A DNA stretch of 64,000 nucleotides from Rhizodiscina lignyota (GCA_010015805.1 ML978127.1:806001-870000), one strand, 5' to 3'; counted from the first letter of the stretch, positions 20,185 to 26,100 are shown. Made by a program: numbers and translations. Notes: generated by a model not told the origin, from the letters alone.

Positions 20185-23100
20185 TTAGTGAACCCCTACC
20201 CTCTCACCTCCGCTCAATCCCACCATCTTTCTATTTCTCTTCACTAGGCCAACAAGTTTCTTCTCAAGTGCTTCCGTATCCTTCCTACTCTCCACCACCG
20301 CTCTCTCCGCCTCCTGTACACTCGCGAATGCCGGTCCTGACCATCCCAGCTCAGGCACAGGACATTCCGCGTACGCTTCAAAGCCCCTCTTCGCACCAAG
20401 TCTCGTCTGCACAAGCCGGTCCATCGCGACCCACGCGTCAATGGTGCCAGGTCCGCCATTCGGTCCTAAGAAGCCTGGTGTTACAGAATGGAGAGATGTC
20501 GCAGACAGAGTTGCTGCGTTGGCAGTGGGGCCGATAGAACCAACAAGAGCAGGCTCGCCTCCAACGCCAACGAAACGGTAGGAGTTGCCATCGATAGCGA
20601 AGCCTGGAGCGTTGGCCCCGGCGTTAGTGCGGTCGCCTGTGGAACCGAGGTAGACTGCATCGGCGGGCTTGCCGGTCTGAGGATGTGGCAGTGAAACTGT
20701 CGGAAGAACGAACTGATTCACATACGACAGGGCCTCGTCAGCCGAAGGAGCCTTACTTGTCGCTGGGACGCCCATAGCAGGAGAGCCAGGGAGGACTGAG
20801 CCAGCTCTTTCGTCGGCTGCTGCCAGGAGCGACTGGGGATGCTGTGTCTGGATGTCTCGAGCGTATTGGTTGGGGTCGAATGTGCTCTCATAGAAGCGGT
20901 GGATATTCGGGATACTCGAGTTTGCGTTGACCAATTGCTGCATCCACTGTGACCGTGGCACTGGCGCCCACGATACTGGTCCACCATGCTCTGCATTCGC
21001 CATCAGGCTCTTCTCGAGCGCGATGTAGCGTTCTTCTTCTTCCGGTTTCAGCATCTTCAGCCATGTGCCGCTCTGACTGATCATATTTCTCGCGGACAAA
21101 CGTGACTCATCGACACCATTTGTCCATCTTATAGGCTCATGTTTCTCGAGCGAGTCAAAGTCCTCAGCTGCGAATGAGCGCGGTACAGTTGTCGAATTAG
21201 CGAAATCGACTTCTTCGAATGCCATCGTGGGGTCATGTCGGATTTGAGAAGATATGTTCGCGATACTAGTCATAAACATCTCCAATGAAGATGTTATGAT
21301 TTCACCACGTGCCACAAGATCCTTCAGAATAGAGGCTGAGCTGATAGACTTCCGTTCGGTGGCTTTACTCTGCGCAGATGCTGGCTCTGGACCTTGATTA
21401 GTAGTGCTCTCCGGAGCGGCAATTTCATCTTGCGTTGTCTCCTTGAAGCTATCAGATTTCTCCTTAACATCTGTAGCCTCTTCTTTTACATCTGCAGGGC
21501 CGGGTGAGGGTGGCCGACTTTCCACGGGCGTCTTGGACTTCGCAGATGCTGGTGCACTAGGAGTGTTTGCTTTCCTCTTCTCTTTCTTTTTCCGCCCAAG
21601 AATTGGTGCCTGTATAGGCTCTTCCTTCTTAATAAACGCCTCCTCCTGAGCTGCAAGTTTCGCCGCGGCCTTCTCCTTCCTCTCTCTCAAAGCCTGACTC
21701 TTGCTCTTCTTGATTGGCGCACTTCCGATTTTGCCTCCAACAGGCGGTGAACTCGCTCGTGACATTGTCAGAGACGCTGATGCAGAGGTGACGGATGCGT
21801 TGTCAGAGATGAACTCGCTTGGCGTTCCGGGAACATTGATGGACGCTATGCTAGCTTTGCGAGACGGACCGGAGAGGCCGGCAACTGCTGGAGCTGTGAC
21901 GGAGGTAGCTGAAATCGCTGAGGGCGGCGGCGGCGTCTCAGTCTTAGGGGTGGTAACTACGCGAATTGTACGCGGCTGGATGGTTCGCCGGATTGGAGAT
22001 CCCGTTGATATCGCGGCTGGAGTTGCGGGTCTAGAGTGTGCAAGCGTAGATGCCGTAGGTGGTTGAGATGATTTAACTATATCGTTTCTTGATGAAGCTG
22101 AGGTAGCTGGCTCGCTAGACCTCTCGGGAACAGTGGTAGCCGCTGCAATATCAAGCTTTCCAGGTGGTTGTCGTCTGGTCGGTTCAGGTGTTGCTTGCGC
22201 TATTGCCTTCGTTGCAGGGACATCACCTTTCACCGATTCTTTGACAGATACCATCGATTCATCTATCAAAGGTGCAGCTTTGTCTGAAACCTTGGGCCTT
22301 TCCGCGCTGTCATCGAGTTTACCTTCTGGCGCCTCTTGCTGCTTTAGCACTGCTTTACCAGATGATCGCGTCTTCGCTACGTCGATTGTGGTTTTAGGAT
22401 CTGCTAAAGGTGAAATAAAGGTCTGCCCTTCTGGACCGGACAGAGATGCGTCCTCATTTTTCACCTCATTTGCTTTGTTAGTGATATCTTTTCCCTCCTT
22501 AACAACGGATTGATTAGGCTTGATCTCCTTTCTCAGAGGTGTACCGACTCGAGCTGCGGGTGTAGCAGGAATCACGGGCACAGCGGGCATAATCGGATTC
22601 GAGATTGTCCTGGGCTTCTCGGGCATTTGCGTGGATTGCGACTCGTCAGGTACTGGCGGTGCTGGTGGTGCAAATCCAGGAGGAACAGTAGGCGTTGCAC
22701 GGCGCTGGGTGTCGCTGTTCGCAGGTGAGCCTGACGGCTGGGGCTGAGCTTGCGGAAGATCAAAGCCTGGCGGCGGCCTGTGAGTGAGCGAACCGAAGAA
22801 CAGGTCATCTGCGAACATTCATGTTAGCGAACACGTAAATTAAAAAGAAAAAAAGAAATCGGAGCTGATGCTGTGATGAGGGTGAATGTTGAACGGAATG
22901 CAACGAAGAGGAGGCATGGATCTATGGGTCTGGTCCTTTTGGTAGCAAGATTGCAAAGCGAGGCGCCGATGTCAGGGGCGGTTCTCTCATCGTCTTCGTC
23001 ACATCAGGAAAAATTGACAGGAAATTGAAGCCATCAAAGATCTACATAAGATTGCAAACTGTTGCCGAGCCCTCTCTCGGCTGGATTCGGCTCTGATGTG

Positions 23101-26100
23101 GAGCAATTAAGTACATGACGATGGCTTTGACGTTGACGAAGACGACGAGAGGTGAACCGACCGACCTAATGCAACGAAGCGAACGTGTCGCCCATAAGCC
23201 CGAATCGAAGAAGATGGAAAAGCGTGCAGGAAGGGTAGTGTGACCCGAGCACCAATCGCTAGCCAAATAAAGCCAGCAAAACAAAACTCCCTAGGCAGTC
23301 CTGACCGTTCACTGAGGTGCTGACATGCCTGATGCTGATTCGCTTTCTCCTTTGGTATGAGGTCCCGTAACGCCGCACGCAAAATGAGTAAAGGACACAG
23401 GCAAAAACATAAACGTCAACGTCAAAGGCCATCTTGTGTGAAATGCAATCTGGGAAGAAGGAAGGGGTGGATTTTGTAGGTTTTACCAACCCCGGCCGAA
23501 ACCACCGGCGTACATGGAGTTGTACCCACCTTGCCCAGCACCCTGACCTCCAGCTCCACCAGCGCCAAACAGTCCATGCCCACCGGCTGCGGCAGAGTTT
23601 TGATGCTGCTGCTGCAACCGCGCCGACAAAATACTCGGGTCCGCAACATTAACATCGACTACACCACCTCCAGAGGAGGAAGTGTTAGCATGCCTGTGCT
23701 TCTTCCCCTTTTTCTTCTGCTTCTGCGACGAGGCCACAGAGTCGGCGTAGCCGGACGCTGGCGGCCCATTGTACGGAGAGAAGCCGAGAAGACTGTGGCC
23801 AGGGGCAGGGCCTGCGGATGCTGGCGTGGTGGAGGTTGAAGGATAGTTGTGATGGGCAGGAGGTTGATGGTTGGGATGATGAAGGAGCGAAGAAAGATTA
23901 TACTCACGCTTTTGTGCGTCTGAAGCTTGACCCGCCGTCCCGCGTTGGCCCTGCATCATTTCTCTCAACAGTGCGTCTTGACGAGTTCCGGTATTGCCAC
24001 CGAAGCCGAGGCTGCTGTTGGCAAACCCATGACCTTGAGCAAACATAGCACCGCCACTCATAGGTGGAGTACCGGTTGTCTTTAGTCCAGGAGGAGGGCC
24101 TTGAACGCCACTTGAGAAGAATTGCGAGGACTGATTTTGGGAGAGTGGGTTGAAATGGCCGGCTTGTTGAGGCATCATTGACGACTGTTGATTCATGAGC
24201 TTGGGGTTGGCGACTGGCTTGATTGCTGCCGAGGATGAGGAGTCATTGGCAAATGAAAACCTCGACTGATTCCGTGCATGGCCAATAGCTCCAGCACCTT
24301 GCGGTAGTCCATGGTTCTGAAAGCTATTCAGAAGGCCTGCTGATTGGGGGGTGCCTGCGGATCTGAGCTGCTGTAGTAACACCTGTTGCTGCTGCTCACG
24401 AGGTGTAAGCCCGCGTCCGAGGTTCAGGTTTGAGATGTCGTCCGCAAGGCCACCGAGGCCTAGATGCGAAGAGCTGAGCTGTGAAGGTGGTTGAATGGCG
24501 TGCTGTTGCTGTACTAGATTGGCATCATGTCTCTCTTCCGGTTCGCCGCCAAGTTGCAAGCTTCCGCTAGCGCCTTCTGGGTGTTCATCTAAGTCTCCAG
24601 TTGCTATCGCCCTTGACACTGTTTGTGATTCAGCCTCCAATCTTCGACGTTCCGCTTCCTGCTCTTTGATCTGTCGTCGTTTTGCGCCTCCATTGGGATC
24701 GAAGAGTGGAGGAAAGTTGGACACGATCGTTAAGTCATCCTGGCCTAAGCTAGATGCGGCAAAGCAGAAATCAAGATCCGGGCTCGTGATCGCCTTTAGT
24801 AGACTGCTTAGATGGCTCTGTTGTGATGTTGAGGACTGCCTTGGAGGGTTTGTAGCTGGAACAGGATGTTTAGGAGCTTCGGTGACTTCTTCCGGCTGGG
24901 CTGCTTCCGACATTTCCTCTGCCGGAGAAATTACTTCAGACACCGATGGTGGTGCTTGCGATGCCGGCTCCGGCTTAGCGGCCATTGGACTTGCTGCAGA
25001 AGAGCTCGCAGTTGCTAGACTTGGTCTCCGACTTGTTTGAGCTTGCAAGGCTTTGTTTCCCCAATTCGCTGTTGATGGTAGGGCCGGGCCTTCCGCAGCA
25101 CTGCCGCTTGGACTTGACACAGCATCGCCACTTCCTTCTCTTTGCATCGGATGCGAGGCTGCACTGATCGGCTGTTGGGTCTGGGGAGGAGGCTGCGGTT
25201 GAGGAGGTCGAGTGGCGTTCGCGGTTGTTCGTGCTTGTTGTGGTTGTTGAGTGCCGATGACGTTCAAAGAAGACAAGTCATGCCTTGTAAAGCTTTCACT
25301 TTCTTCTCCAGGCTCGTGCAAGAACATGCAGTTCCTATTCGTGCAGTTTTCGCCACGTAAGAACGCTGAACAATACTTCGTCGTACCGTATTGCGCTCTG
25401 ATACCTGTTAGTGTATATACTTAAAAGCCTTGAACAAAATGCTTACCGTAACGTTCGATCTCCATTCTGCGATCCATCGACAGCCGCTATGCAGGTCGCA
25501 GCGTCTTCTTTCCGAGCGAATGTGACATAGACTCCCACCGATTGCGGAGGGTGCGATGCCTGCTTAGCTTTGCTGACTACGATCTTGATGATCTTGCCGT
25601 ATTGTCCAAAGTACTGTTCGCCTCGTAGTGTCTCCAACAACTGGTCCTCTTGTATGCGCGGGCTGAGGCCGGTGACATAGACAAGATTCTTCTGCACGAC
25701 GCGTAGGCCAGCGAGGTGTTTACGGTTCAGGTGGTCGGCTTCCTTTTTTTGCGCCTCCTTCTGCTTTGCTGCAGCCTGCTTCTTTTGTTTCGCTGCGTTG
25801 TCGGCCTTGTGAAGCGCCATCCTTGATTAAGTCAGTCGGCTGATGCTTCCAATGAGACGGTTGCAAGACTTACTCCTCTGGACTGACAGGCTTCCACTGT
25901 ATGTTTTTTTCGTCGTAGGGCCTCCGACATGCCGGACATAAGCCGTTCAGGGTGGTCTTGATGTTATTGTAGCAGAACTGGCATATCTGAACACAGTGTT
26001 AAGAGTCAGTGTCTTCGACCGCGTGATGAGTGAACATACCTGGTAGCCGCAGGGACAAGGCTTGAAGCTCTTGTCCATGAGATCGAACTCCTCGACGCAT

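Follow-up and report, generated by a model that had tools for sequence, protein, structure and literature searches.

A 64,000-nucleotide stretch of the Rhizodiscina lignyota genome (GCA_010015805.1, ML978127.1:806001-870000; hereafter the window, from whose first letter all coordinates are counted) carries the NOT4 gene on its minus strand. Its product, Not4, acts as the ubiquitin ligase of the CCR4-NOT complex, which has a central part in controlling mRNA decay and the quality of translation. The subject of this work is a long intron of the gene, which also provides the end of a predicted short isoform, and a long-range RNA hairpin within it that may take part in the choice between short and long Not4.

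The NOT4 gene and its long intron

An RRM_1 domain match in the upstream exons (E 5.9e-9) places the gene in the NOT4/MOT2 family, and its RING exon is recognizable in the list of open reading frames (ORFs). The 645-residue ORF that ends at 23483 has 444 longer homologs in a search covering proteins of 1130-3225 residues. These continue into the 877-residue downstream ORF (20185-22818), with few residues between the two flanks in the top homolog. Among the best 120 of the 444, most are 1400-1730 residues long (range 1170-2184), the top one is 47% identical, and those named at source are Not4/MOT2, RING-type or RNA-recognition-domain proteins, or hypothetical. The top-ranking homologs bear PF14570 and PF00076. 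In an alignment of 40 homologs, the junction falls directly after a conserved G-Q-G-Q in most gene models; in the window, exon 1 ends in ...GAGQ, exon 2 starts with DDLFFG and the intron is in phase 1. The initial annotation had identified the gene as NOT4 and the region as a long intron doubling as the end of a short isoform, and both readings are borne out by the domain match, the collinear homologs and the conserved tail and splice sites. The elements that define the processing of this region all lie on the minus strand:

23902..23907 (embedding stretch to 23911), minus strand: site A, upstream alternative 5' splice site, GTGAGT in codons K-R-E; phase 1, the same as site B
23524..23529, minus strand: site B, 5' splice site GTGGGT in codons Q-G-G-Y; start of the 721-nt intron
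23483..23530, minus strand: short-isoform tail (GGYNSMYAGGFGRGW) and TAA (23485-23483), read only when the intron is not removed from site B
22809..23529, minus strand: whole alternatively processed intron; 721 nt from site B, 1099 nt from site A
22809..22828, minus strand: branch point GCTAAC (22828-22823) and 3' splice site AG (22810-22809), common to all alternative 5' sites
20185..22808, minus strand: exon 2, long-isoform C-terminal extension of ~875 residues, without a Pfam domain

Judged by its GTGGGT 5' site, GCTAAC branch point, terminal AG, phase 1 and a position kept in orthologs, this appears to be a spliceosomal, alternatively processed intron. The branch point lies 13 nt upstream of the AG. 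The alternative intron is 14-26 times longer than the other three NOT4 introns, which measure 53, 52 and 42 nt (within 25405-26039, minus strand), have the 5' sites GTATGT, GTAAGT and GTAAGC, and carry the branch motifs CTGAC/CTAAC. Splicing from site A to exon 2 is annotated in some homologs, among them Alternaria models. Use of site A would remove a conserved end of ~100-140 residues (KKKGKKHRHANTSSS...PSILQARL) from the long isoform. A protein from an assembled sequencing run (P0122) is 86% identical to the tail region of the window NOT4.

Orthologs were collected by a scan of metagenome contigs, for which the query was an alignment of the conserved KKKGKKHRHANTSSS...PSILQA sequence that immediately precedes the intron. 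The scan yielded 18 loci (L001-L018, of which L009 and L010 are identical in sequence), whose lineages are inferred from best protein hits. The short tail is kept in frame in all 18 as GG(Y/F)N..M.Y...; its last residues before the stop are RW in 17 loci and RWQL in one. Because its Arg codons are CGN or AGR across loci and all three stop codons occur, the tail appears to be under selection at the level of the protein. At the two splice sites, synonymous positions are fixed: site B, CAAG/GTGGGT (CAA-GGT-GGG-T; the slash marks the junction), is identical there in 16 of the 18 loci and in the window, which points to selection as a splice site. Site A, AAGC/GTGAGT, is likewise identical at synonymous positions in 18/18 loci holding the region (17 metagenome loci and the window; the L013 contig begins downstream of it and was left out of this count). 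One locus, L017 (4088-4180), has CAA-AGC-GGT-TTC in place of site B; it retains site A, the short tail, the GUAYGU motif described below, the hairpin and a pairing like helix 1.

The downstream half of the layout is kept as well. Site A lies 328-427 nt upstream of the short-isoform stop across loci, and exon 2 is located 440-850 nt past that stop. A CTRAY branch motif stands 15-22 nt upstream of an in-phase AG in the window and 13 loci, and the complete orthologous introns, present in 12 loci, measure 599-908 nt and have a single common 3' splice site. Database searches returned, besides the long proteins, 736 shorter, near-length homologs (E<=0.001); among the best 120 of these, 115 terminate in RW or GW, and many are annotated at ~780-836 residues. 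Since the short tail, the splice sites and exon 2 are kept across loci and database proteins, the short form (~800 residues) and the long forms are both ancient by the measure of sequence conservation.

A long-range hairpin in the intron

The initial annotation described a central segment of the intron (23159-23120) that can pair either with an upstream or with a downstream box. The sequence, a repeat finder and duplex energies agree with the boxes, their positions and both pairings. The parts of the two helices, again on the minus strand, are as follows:

23414..23433, minus strand: upstream box, 5' arm of helix 1; starts 50 nt past TAA
23134..23159, minus strand: C arm, 5' arm of helix 2; core TCGTCTTC
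23120..23138, minus strand: 3' flank of the C arm; pairs with the upstream box (helix 1) or with 23035-23028 (inner helix 2)
23107..23115, minus strand: motif T/GTAYGTWA, here TGTACTTAA; 5 nt past the helix 1 partner, at the 5' base of the hairpin loop
23028..23035, minus strand: inner 3' partner GATGGCTT of 23127-23120; inner extension of helix 2
22979..23001, minus strand: D arm, 3' arm of helix 2; core GAAGACGA
22971..22975, minus strand: CTGAC, branch-point-like, just past the D arm; its putative ortholog counterpart is (C)GTGAC in several loci

Helix 1 joins 23433-23414 to 23138-23120 through 19 bp with one bulged C (-29.6 kcal/mol). The core of helix 2, 23001-22984 with 23151-23134, consists of 17 Watson-Crick pairs and one G-U (-31.1 kcal/mol); adding 23159-23155/22983-22979 and 23127-23120/23035-23028 as extensions brings the duplex to -51.3 kcal/mol. 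As first noted, the sole non-Watson-Crick pair of helix 2 is G-U on the sense and C-A on the antisense strand, where the core is weaker (-27.1 vs -31.1 kcal/mol). Helix 1 shares nucleotides with five of the 18 core pairs and all eight inner-extension pairs of helix 2, and the two helices cross.

Both helices stand out from their surroundings. The whole window holds six local inverted repeats of at least 14 nt (<=1 mismatch, <=700 nt apart), and two of the six are helices 1 and 2, with one common arm (22984-23001/23134-23151, 18 nt with one non-Watson-Crick pair; 23125-23138/23414-23427, 14 nt exact). The 18-mer of helix 2 is the longest inverted repeat of the window, while 20 block shuffles gave none above 16 nt. 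The boxes have no further copies elsewhere in the window. Folding against shuffled controls, which had been proposed as a check, gave z = -2.79 for the sense intron (0/20 shuffles as stable) and z = -0.53 for the antisense (8/20). The helices in the window are real and non-random, far beyond chance.

Conservation of helix 2 was assessed with a gapless helix score on complete introns, each compared with 100 dinucleotide shuffles, and with a test anchored on the GUAYGU motif. The gapless score was reached by no shuffle in the window, L002 and L009, by one in L004, by two in L013 and by four in L007; it was not significant in L001, L003, L005, L008, L012, L015 and L016. Helix 2 ranks first or near the top among the helices of the window, L002, L004, L005, L007 and L013. 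The anchored test folded the 45 nt preceding the motif with the sequence 25-280 nt beyond it, and the latter was shuffled 200 times as a control. No shuffle attained the observed energy in the window, L005, L004, L007 and L013; one did in L002, L017 and L011, two in L006 and L018, and three in L015. In total, 11 loci have a significant hairpin in the corresponding position, out of 17 that could be evaluated (the window is counted; L014, cut by its contig end, is not). By best protein hits, the hairpin-bearing loci look Leotiomycete, Dothideomycete and Lecanoromycete, and L001, L003, L008 and L012, which have no hairpin, are Eurotiomycete-like.

The 5' arm core TCGTCTTC is identical in eight loci; the 3' arm core GAAGACGA is found again in L004, L007 and L013 and in variant form in L002, L005, L006, L015 and L017, and the inner pairing GCCATC:GATGGC is also found in L005 and L017. 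L011, L018 and L015 have arms quite unlike the TCGTCTTC group; the helix has therefore been kept while its letters changed. Across loci the 5' arm ends 4-22 nt before the motif, the loop spans 50-190 nt and the 3' arm ends 100-170 nt before exon 2. Such a layout fits an intron helix that draws splice sites closer together: in a long intron, complementary boxes loop out part of the path from a 5' splice site to the branch point.

Compensatory change was measured in two alignments. The first is a MAFFT alignment of nine hairpins, in which the 3' arms of L005, L017 and L015 are out of register and were kept as they stood, which works against the structure. Here 79.5% of cells are paired, and sliding the partner columns lowers this to 29-62%. 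Seven of 18 pairs have changed on both sides, 11 cells have done so (5/500 shuffles), and the covariation score is 0.222 vs 0.156 shuffled (7/500 reach it) and <=0.093 slid. The second alignment, of 11 sequences, was fitted with a covariance model built from the first and leans towards the structure: 79.8% of cells are paired (0/500), 12 are changed on both sides (0/500) and the covariation score is again reached by 7/500. In both alignments the score exceeds the slid controls two- to five-fold. The covariance model recovers two loci on which it was not trained, L016 (35 bits, E 1.7e-6) and the contig-truncated L014, and, weakly, L011 (E 0.23); it has a single sense match in the window and no match in L001, L003, L008, L012, L009 and L018.

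Strand specificity points the same way. About 14 G-U cells in the alignments would be mismatches if the antisense strand were the functional one, and the sense score equals or exceeds the antisense score in all six introns with a significant top helix, being greater in five. With a structure at the same place in distant loci, compensatory changes on both sides above controls and a preference for one strand, helix 2 is very probably a real, conserved sense-strand RNA structure within a deeply conserved alternative-isoform region of NOT4. The comparison of orthologous introns, which the initial annotation had called for, supports its downstream pairing (11/17 loci; covariation score 7/500) and not its upstream one, which 11 of 15 loci are without.

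The hairpin always begins just upstream of a near-invariant motif, U/GUAYGUWA. In 18 distinct loci, the counts at its successive positions are T 18, G 18, T 18, A 18, Y 18 (C 15, T 3), G 16, T 18, W 18 and A 15. From its sequence, the motif could be either a third 5' splice site, which we call site C, or a UGUA-type signal. It had escaped the initial annotation, and its place inside the hairpin offers a putative alternative route to the short isoform.

Other elements of the intron recur among the orthologs. The loop motifs UAUAGCAU/UGUAGCAU and UUCUCACA are found in the hairpin loops of L003, L004, L007, L012, L016 and others. Directly past the 3' arm stands (C)GUGAC or CUGAC, followed by GGACCAGAC in the window and L004. 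For the loop motifs and (C)GUGAC/CUGAC, two roles are conceivable: poly(A) elements, or a branch point and 3' splice site internal to the intron. A block (U)AGCGAGCAUGG lies ~110-160 nt past the short stop in L004, L006, L007, L009, L013, L015 and L018, and has a diverged form in the window at ~23323-23346 (minus strand). L009, one of the hairpin-less loci, has a 28-nt helix instead (L009:3254-3281 with L009:3759-3786; 0/100 shuffles), which joins the region of the short-isoform stop codon to a site ~60 nt upstream of the 3' splice site. This helix would place site B beside the branch point and loop out GUAYGU.

Three further identities for these elements were considered and rejected. A coding micro-exon at the C arm, which in the window could by eye be outlined as an in-frame piece of 51 nt, is contradicted by L004, which has no AG in the 60 nt before the arm, by eight contiguous invariant bases without a codon wobble pattern, and by the lack of such an insert in 40 of 40 homolog models. 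A box C/D or H/ACA small nucleolar RNA, suggested by GAUGAUGG and CUGA, would have boxes only ~10 nt apart, and no Rfam model matches. Read as a PUF-type site, UGUAYGUWA is without the terminal AUA of the consensus.

Helix 1 and the proposed choice between isoforms

Helix 1, unlike helix 2, is not generally conserved. In 15 loci, a gapless test of pairing from the post-stop region was reached by 2/300 shuffles in the window, 0/300 in L013, 8/300 in L017 and 13/300 in L015. A looser duplex test of the post-stop against the C-arm region gave 4/150 for the window and 10/150 for L012, was not significant in the other 13 loci, and singles out the window. In L017, a box 34-54 nt past the stop pairs between the C arm and the motif, which is the topology of the window in different letters; only these two loci share it. 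L013 forms a perfect 17-bp helix from the same post-stop position, but it lands just upstream of the C arm, so there is no competition. L005, whose C arm is closest to that of the window, is without helix 1. Helices from the stop region to downstream sequence recur, but they are not one conserved element.

The two helices compete in the window, as the initial annotation had proposed, although their exclusion is only partial, since helix 1 leaves room for 13 of the 18 helix 2 core pairs. In the full-intron ensemble, the pairing probability is 0.94-0.99 for helix 2 and 0.000 for helix 1, and forced ensembles (-220.0 kcal/mol with helix 2 vs -209.1 with helix 1) favour helix 2 by ~11 kcal/mol. 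In a transcript that extends to nt 490, before the D arm, helix 1 has a pairing probability of 0.97. Because helix 1 is near zero at equilibrium and most core pairs are compatible with it, any switching would be kinetic, that is co-transcriptional, and partial. Mutually exclusive pairings conserved across species, as expected of a two-state switch, were not found among the 15 loci. Nor was a known aptamer: Rfam 15 gave no match at E<=10 for the window region or at E<=0.1 for 11 orthologous loci, and two sub-threshold matches to known non-coding RNAs (19.7 and 14.8 bits vs gathering scores of 64 and 37) are attributable to chance. Of the RNA switch first suggested, what stands is the C:D helix; the upstream competitor is present in three to four of 15 loci, and a function of helix 1 as a switch is doubtful.

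We propose that the conserved hairpin governs the choice between short and long Not4. Sites A and B, embedded in coding sequence, would be joined over an intron of 600-1100 nt to one 3' splice site to give the long isoforms, which across Pezizomycotina would carry the ~875-residue extension. RNA left unspliced from A or B would be translated to the conserved ...RW-stop end and yield a yeast-like short isoform. GUAYGU would serve as the third 5' splice site, C, past the short-isoform stop and with the same 3' splice site. All isoforms could then have one common 3' end, and the protein output would be set by which 5' site pairs with the shared branch point. The hairpin should shift this competition, because it shortens the path by 50-190 nt and places a stable helix at a distance of 4-22 nt from site C. 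Acting in cis, it would set how readily site C, and the more distant sites A and B, gain access to the branch point, and thereby, in one direction or the other, the short:long ratio. Helix 1 would be a lineage-restricted addition in the window organism: the first to form as the RNA is transcribed, it would occupy the hairpin's inner face until transcription of the D arm displaces it; it could impose a kinetic delay and would not act as an equilibrium switch. What the sequences show is the helices with their conservation and covariation, the fixed splice signals and the conserved short tail; that site C is used, that the hairpin shifts isoform choice one way or the other, and that helix 1 has a role are inferred. 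Taken as a whole, this is the best explanation we can offer for the locus, and we regard it as evenly balanced between right and wrong.

Several observations weigh against the hairpin or its proposed role. No significant hairpin is seen in six of the 17 loci though the motif is kept there: L001 (102/200 shuffles), L003 (66), L008 (116), L012 (66), L016 (125) and L009 (72). The covariation rests on 9-11 sequences, with the 11-sequence alignment fitted to the structure, and two of its measures are not significant: the number of pairs changed on both sides (35/500 in the MAFFT and 53/500 in the model-fitted alignment) and the number of further pair types (99/500 and 167/500). Helix-1-like pairing fails the gapless test with 300 shuffles in 11 of 15 loci. 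The motif itself reads GTACTT in the window and GTACAT in L013; a fifth-position G, which matters in 5' splice sites, is missing from both, and a UGUA element would explain the T that invariably precedes GT equally well. An mRNA spliced at site C would have a spliced 3' untranslated region (UTR) and may be degraded instead of translated.

In a rival reading, in line with the intronic 3'-end formation suggested in the initial annotation, the hairpin encloses and presents, or hides, an intronic poly(A) signal, UGUAYGU and UAUAGCAU/UGUAGCAU are UGUA and UA-rich upstream elements, and the short mRNA ends within the intron. UGUA is invariant, including the U before G, in 18/18 loci; several loci have a second UA-rich block and the UUCUCACA block in the loop, many public gene models end at the short stop, and UGUA and UA-rich elements are described as poly(A) cis-elements in the text of PMC12667328. 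The fifth-position G that the window and L013 lack would not be missed by such a signal. However, the G and U after UGUAY are also conserved, which a 5' splice site needs and a UGUA element does not, and a conserved A-rich positioning element or cleavage site was not identified in the loci; we consider intronic polyadenylation possible but not probable. Somewhat less likely still is a true two-state switch or pseudoknot of helices 1 and 2, flipped by a trans factor such as the Not4 RRM. The overlap and crossing of the pairings, the dominance of helix 1 in the partial transcript, the same-topology helix of L017 and the perfect 17-bp helix of L013 all fit it, but the 11 of 15 loci without such a helix, among them the closest C-box relative, the energy gap at equilibrium, the compatibility of most core pairs, and the lack of an aptamer-like conserved core or an Rfam match speak against it.

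Two further readings rank lower. In the first, the complementarity is a by-product at the DNA level, such as an inverted duplication or transposon remnant, and has no RNA function. The upstream box is one base apart from the reverse complement of the central box, as in a recent duplication, and the three boxes resemble copies of one 40-nt unit. A multi-copy family of the miniature inverted-repeat transposable element type would have left further copies, and the window, where this was tested locally, holds none; moreover, helix 2 is co-located in 11/17 loci of several inferred classes, with compensatory changes and a sense-only G-U. These arguments leave helix 1 alone uncovered, and for the complementarity as a whole a DNA-level origin is very unlikely. 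More improbable yet is that two separate genes adjoin here, NOT4 ending at the RW-stop and the downstream ORF being independent, so that the supposed intron merely separates two genes and the hairpin belongs to a 3' end or a promoter. In line with this are the near-length proteins that end at the short stop and an ATG 8 nt upstream of the 3' splice site in the window. Against this stand two 5' splice sites fixed at synonymous codon positions, a conserved branch point and AG in matching phase, the 444 long gene models, and the description of Aspergillus fumigatus Not4 as ~2x yeast length in the text of PMC7773993. We retain isoform choice through competing 5' splice sites and the hairpin as the preferred explanation.

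Significance and relation to known systems

Not4 of filamentous fungi is twice the yeast length, and its C-terminal domain is unexplained according to the text of PMC7773993. Our analysis suggests that the same gene also yields a conserved short, yeast-like form, and the choice between them appears, from the patterns of conservation, to be encoded in codon-embedded splice sites and a conserved hairpin. If true, this would open a concrete and testable way into the use that the fungus makes of the long domain, and would add to the few covariation-supported structured pre-mRNA elements known in fungi an element absent from Rfam 15. A bolder reading is an ancient RNA device in filamentous ascomycetes, in which three competing 5' splice sites, the hairpin and lineage-specific competitors would form a signal-responsive autoregulatory switch on Not4 and divide it into a yeast-like short protein and a long form restricted to filamentous fungi. 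The signal could be, for example, Not4's own RRM, the speed of transcription or nonsense-mediated decay of the site-C product. We regard this reading as speculative and rather unlikely; if it were true, the locus would hold a conserved switch on a master regulator of mRNA turnover.

In long yeast introns, intron helices bring the 5' splice site and branch point together. The NOT4 intron resembles these in having complementary boxes in an unusually long intron that would shorten the effective distance to the branch point, and the 28-nt helix of L009 is a clean example. Unlike them, the NOT4 helix lies in an alternatively processed region, flanks an extra conserved splice-site-like motif and has a core conserved across apparent classes.

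The protein has been studied in A. fumigatus, where Not4 is reported to have a C-terminal domain specific to filamentous fungi and ~2x yeast length (Shwab et al. 2020, PMC7773993). Of the truncated forms reported, Not4(1-693) supports near-normal growth, and the truncated proteins are much more abundant (PMC7773993). This is the same family and long form as in the window, and Not4(1-693) ends slightly before the predicted natural short end. In contrast to the gene structure described here, the text of PMC7773993 contains 0 occurrences of 'intron' and 'splic' and describes no natural short isoform.

As an RNA, the element is like those from covariation screens of fungi (Gao, Jones and Rivas 2021, PMC8216456; Li and Breaker 2017, PMC5640933) in being a covariation-supported structure in non-coding Pezizomycotina pre-mRNA. 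NOT4, MOT2 and CCR4 are absent from the main texts of PMC8216456 and PMC5640933, which leaves identity with a screened element possible. The initial annotation knew of no description of the element, and within this scope that stands: Rfam 15 has no matching family, and the literature examined on Not4 with intron, polyadenylation, isoform or splicing holds no description of it.

The nearest published mechanism, by analogy, is the thiamin pyrophosphate (TPP) riboswitch of Neurospora crassa NCU01977 (Li and Breaker 2013, PMC3597705), whose 530-nt long-distance base pairing adjoins a 5' splice site within a large intron. The NOT4 element differs from it, as described there, in having no Rfam-matching aptamer or known ligand, and its partner is a simple complementary box outside any aptamer. 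In both cases, a large fungal intron has several alternative 5' splice sites and an architecture conserved across fungi. In both, one arm of a long-range helix adjoins a 5' splice site, and the altered site use that is a feature of the TPP system is putative for NOT4.

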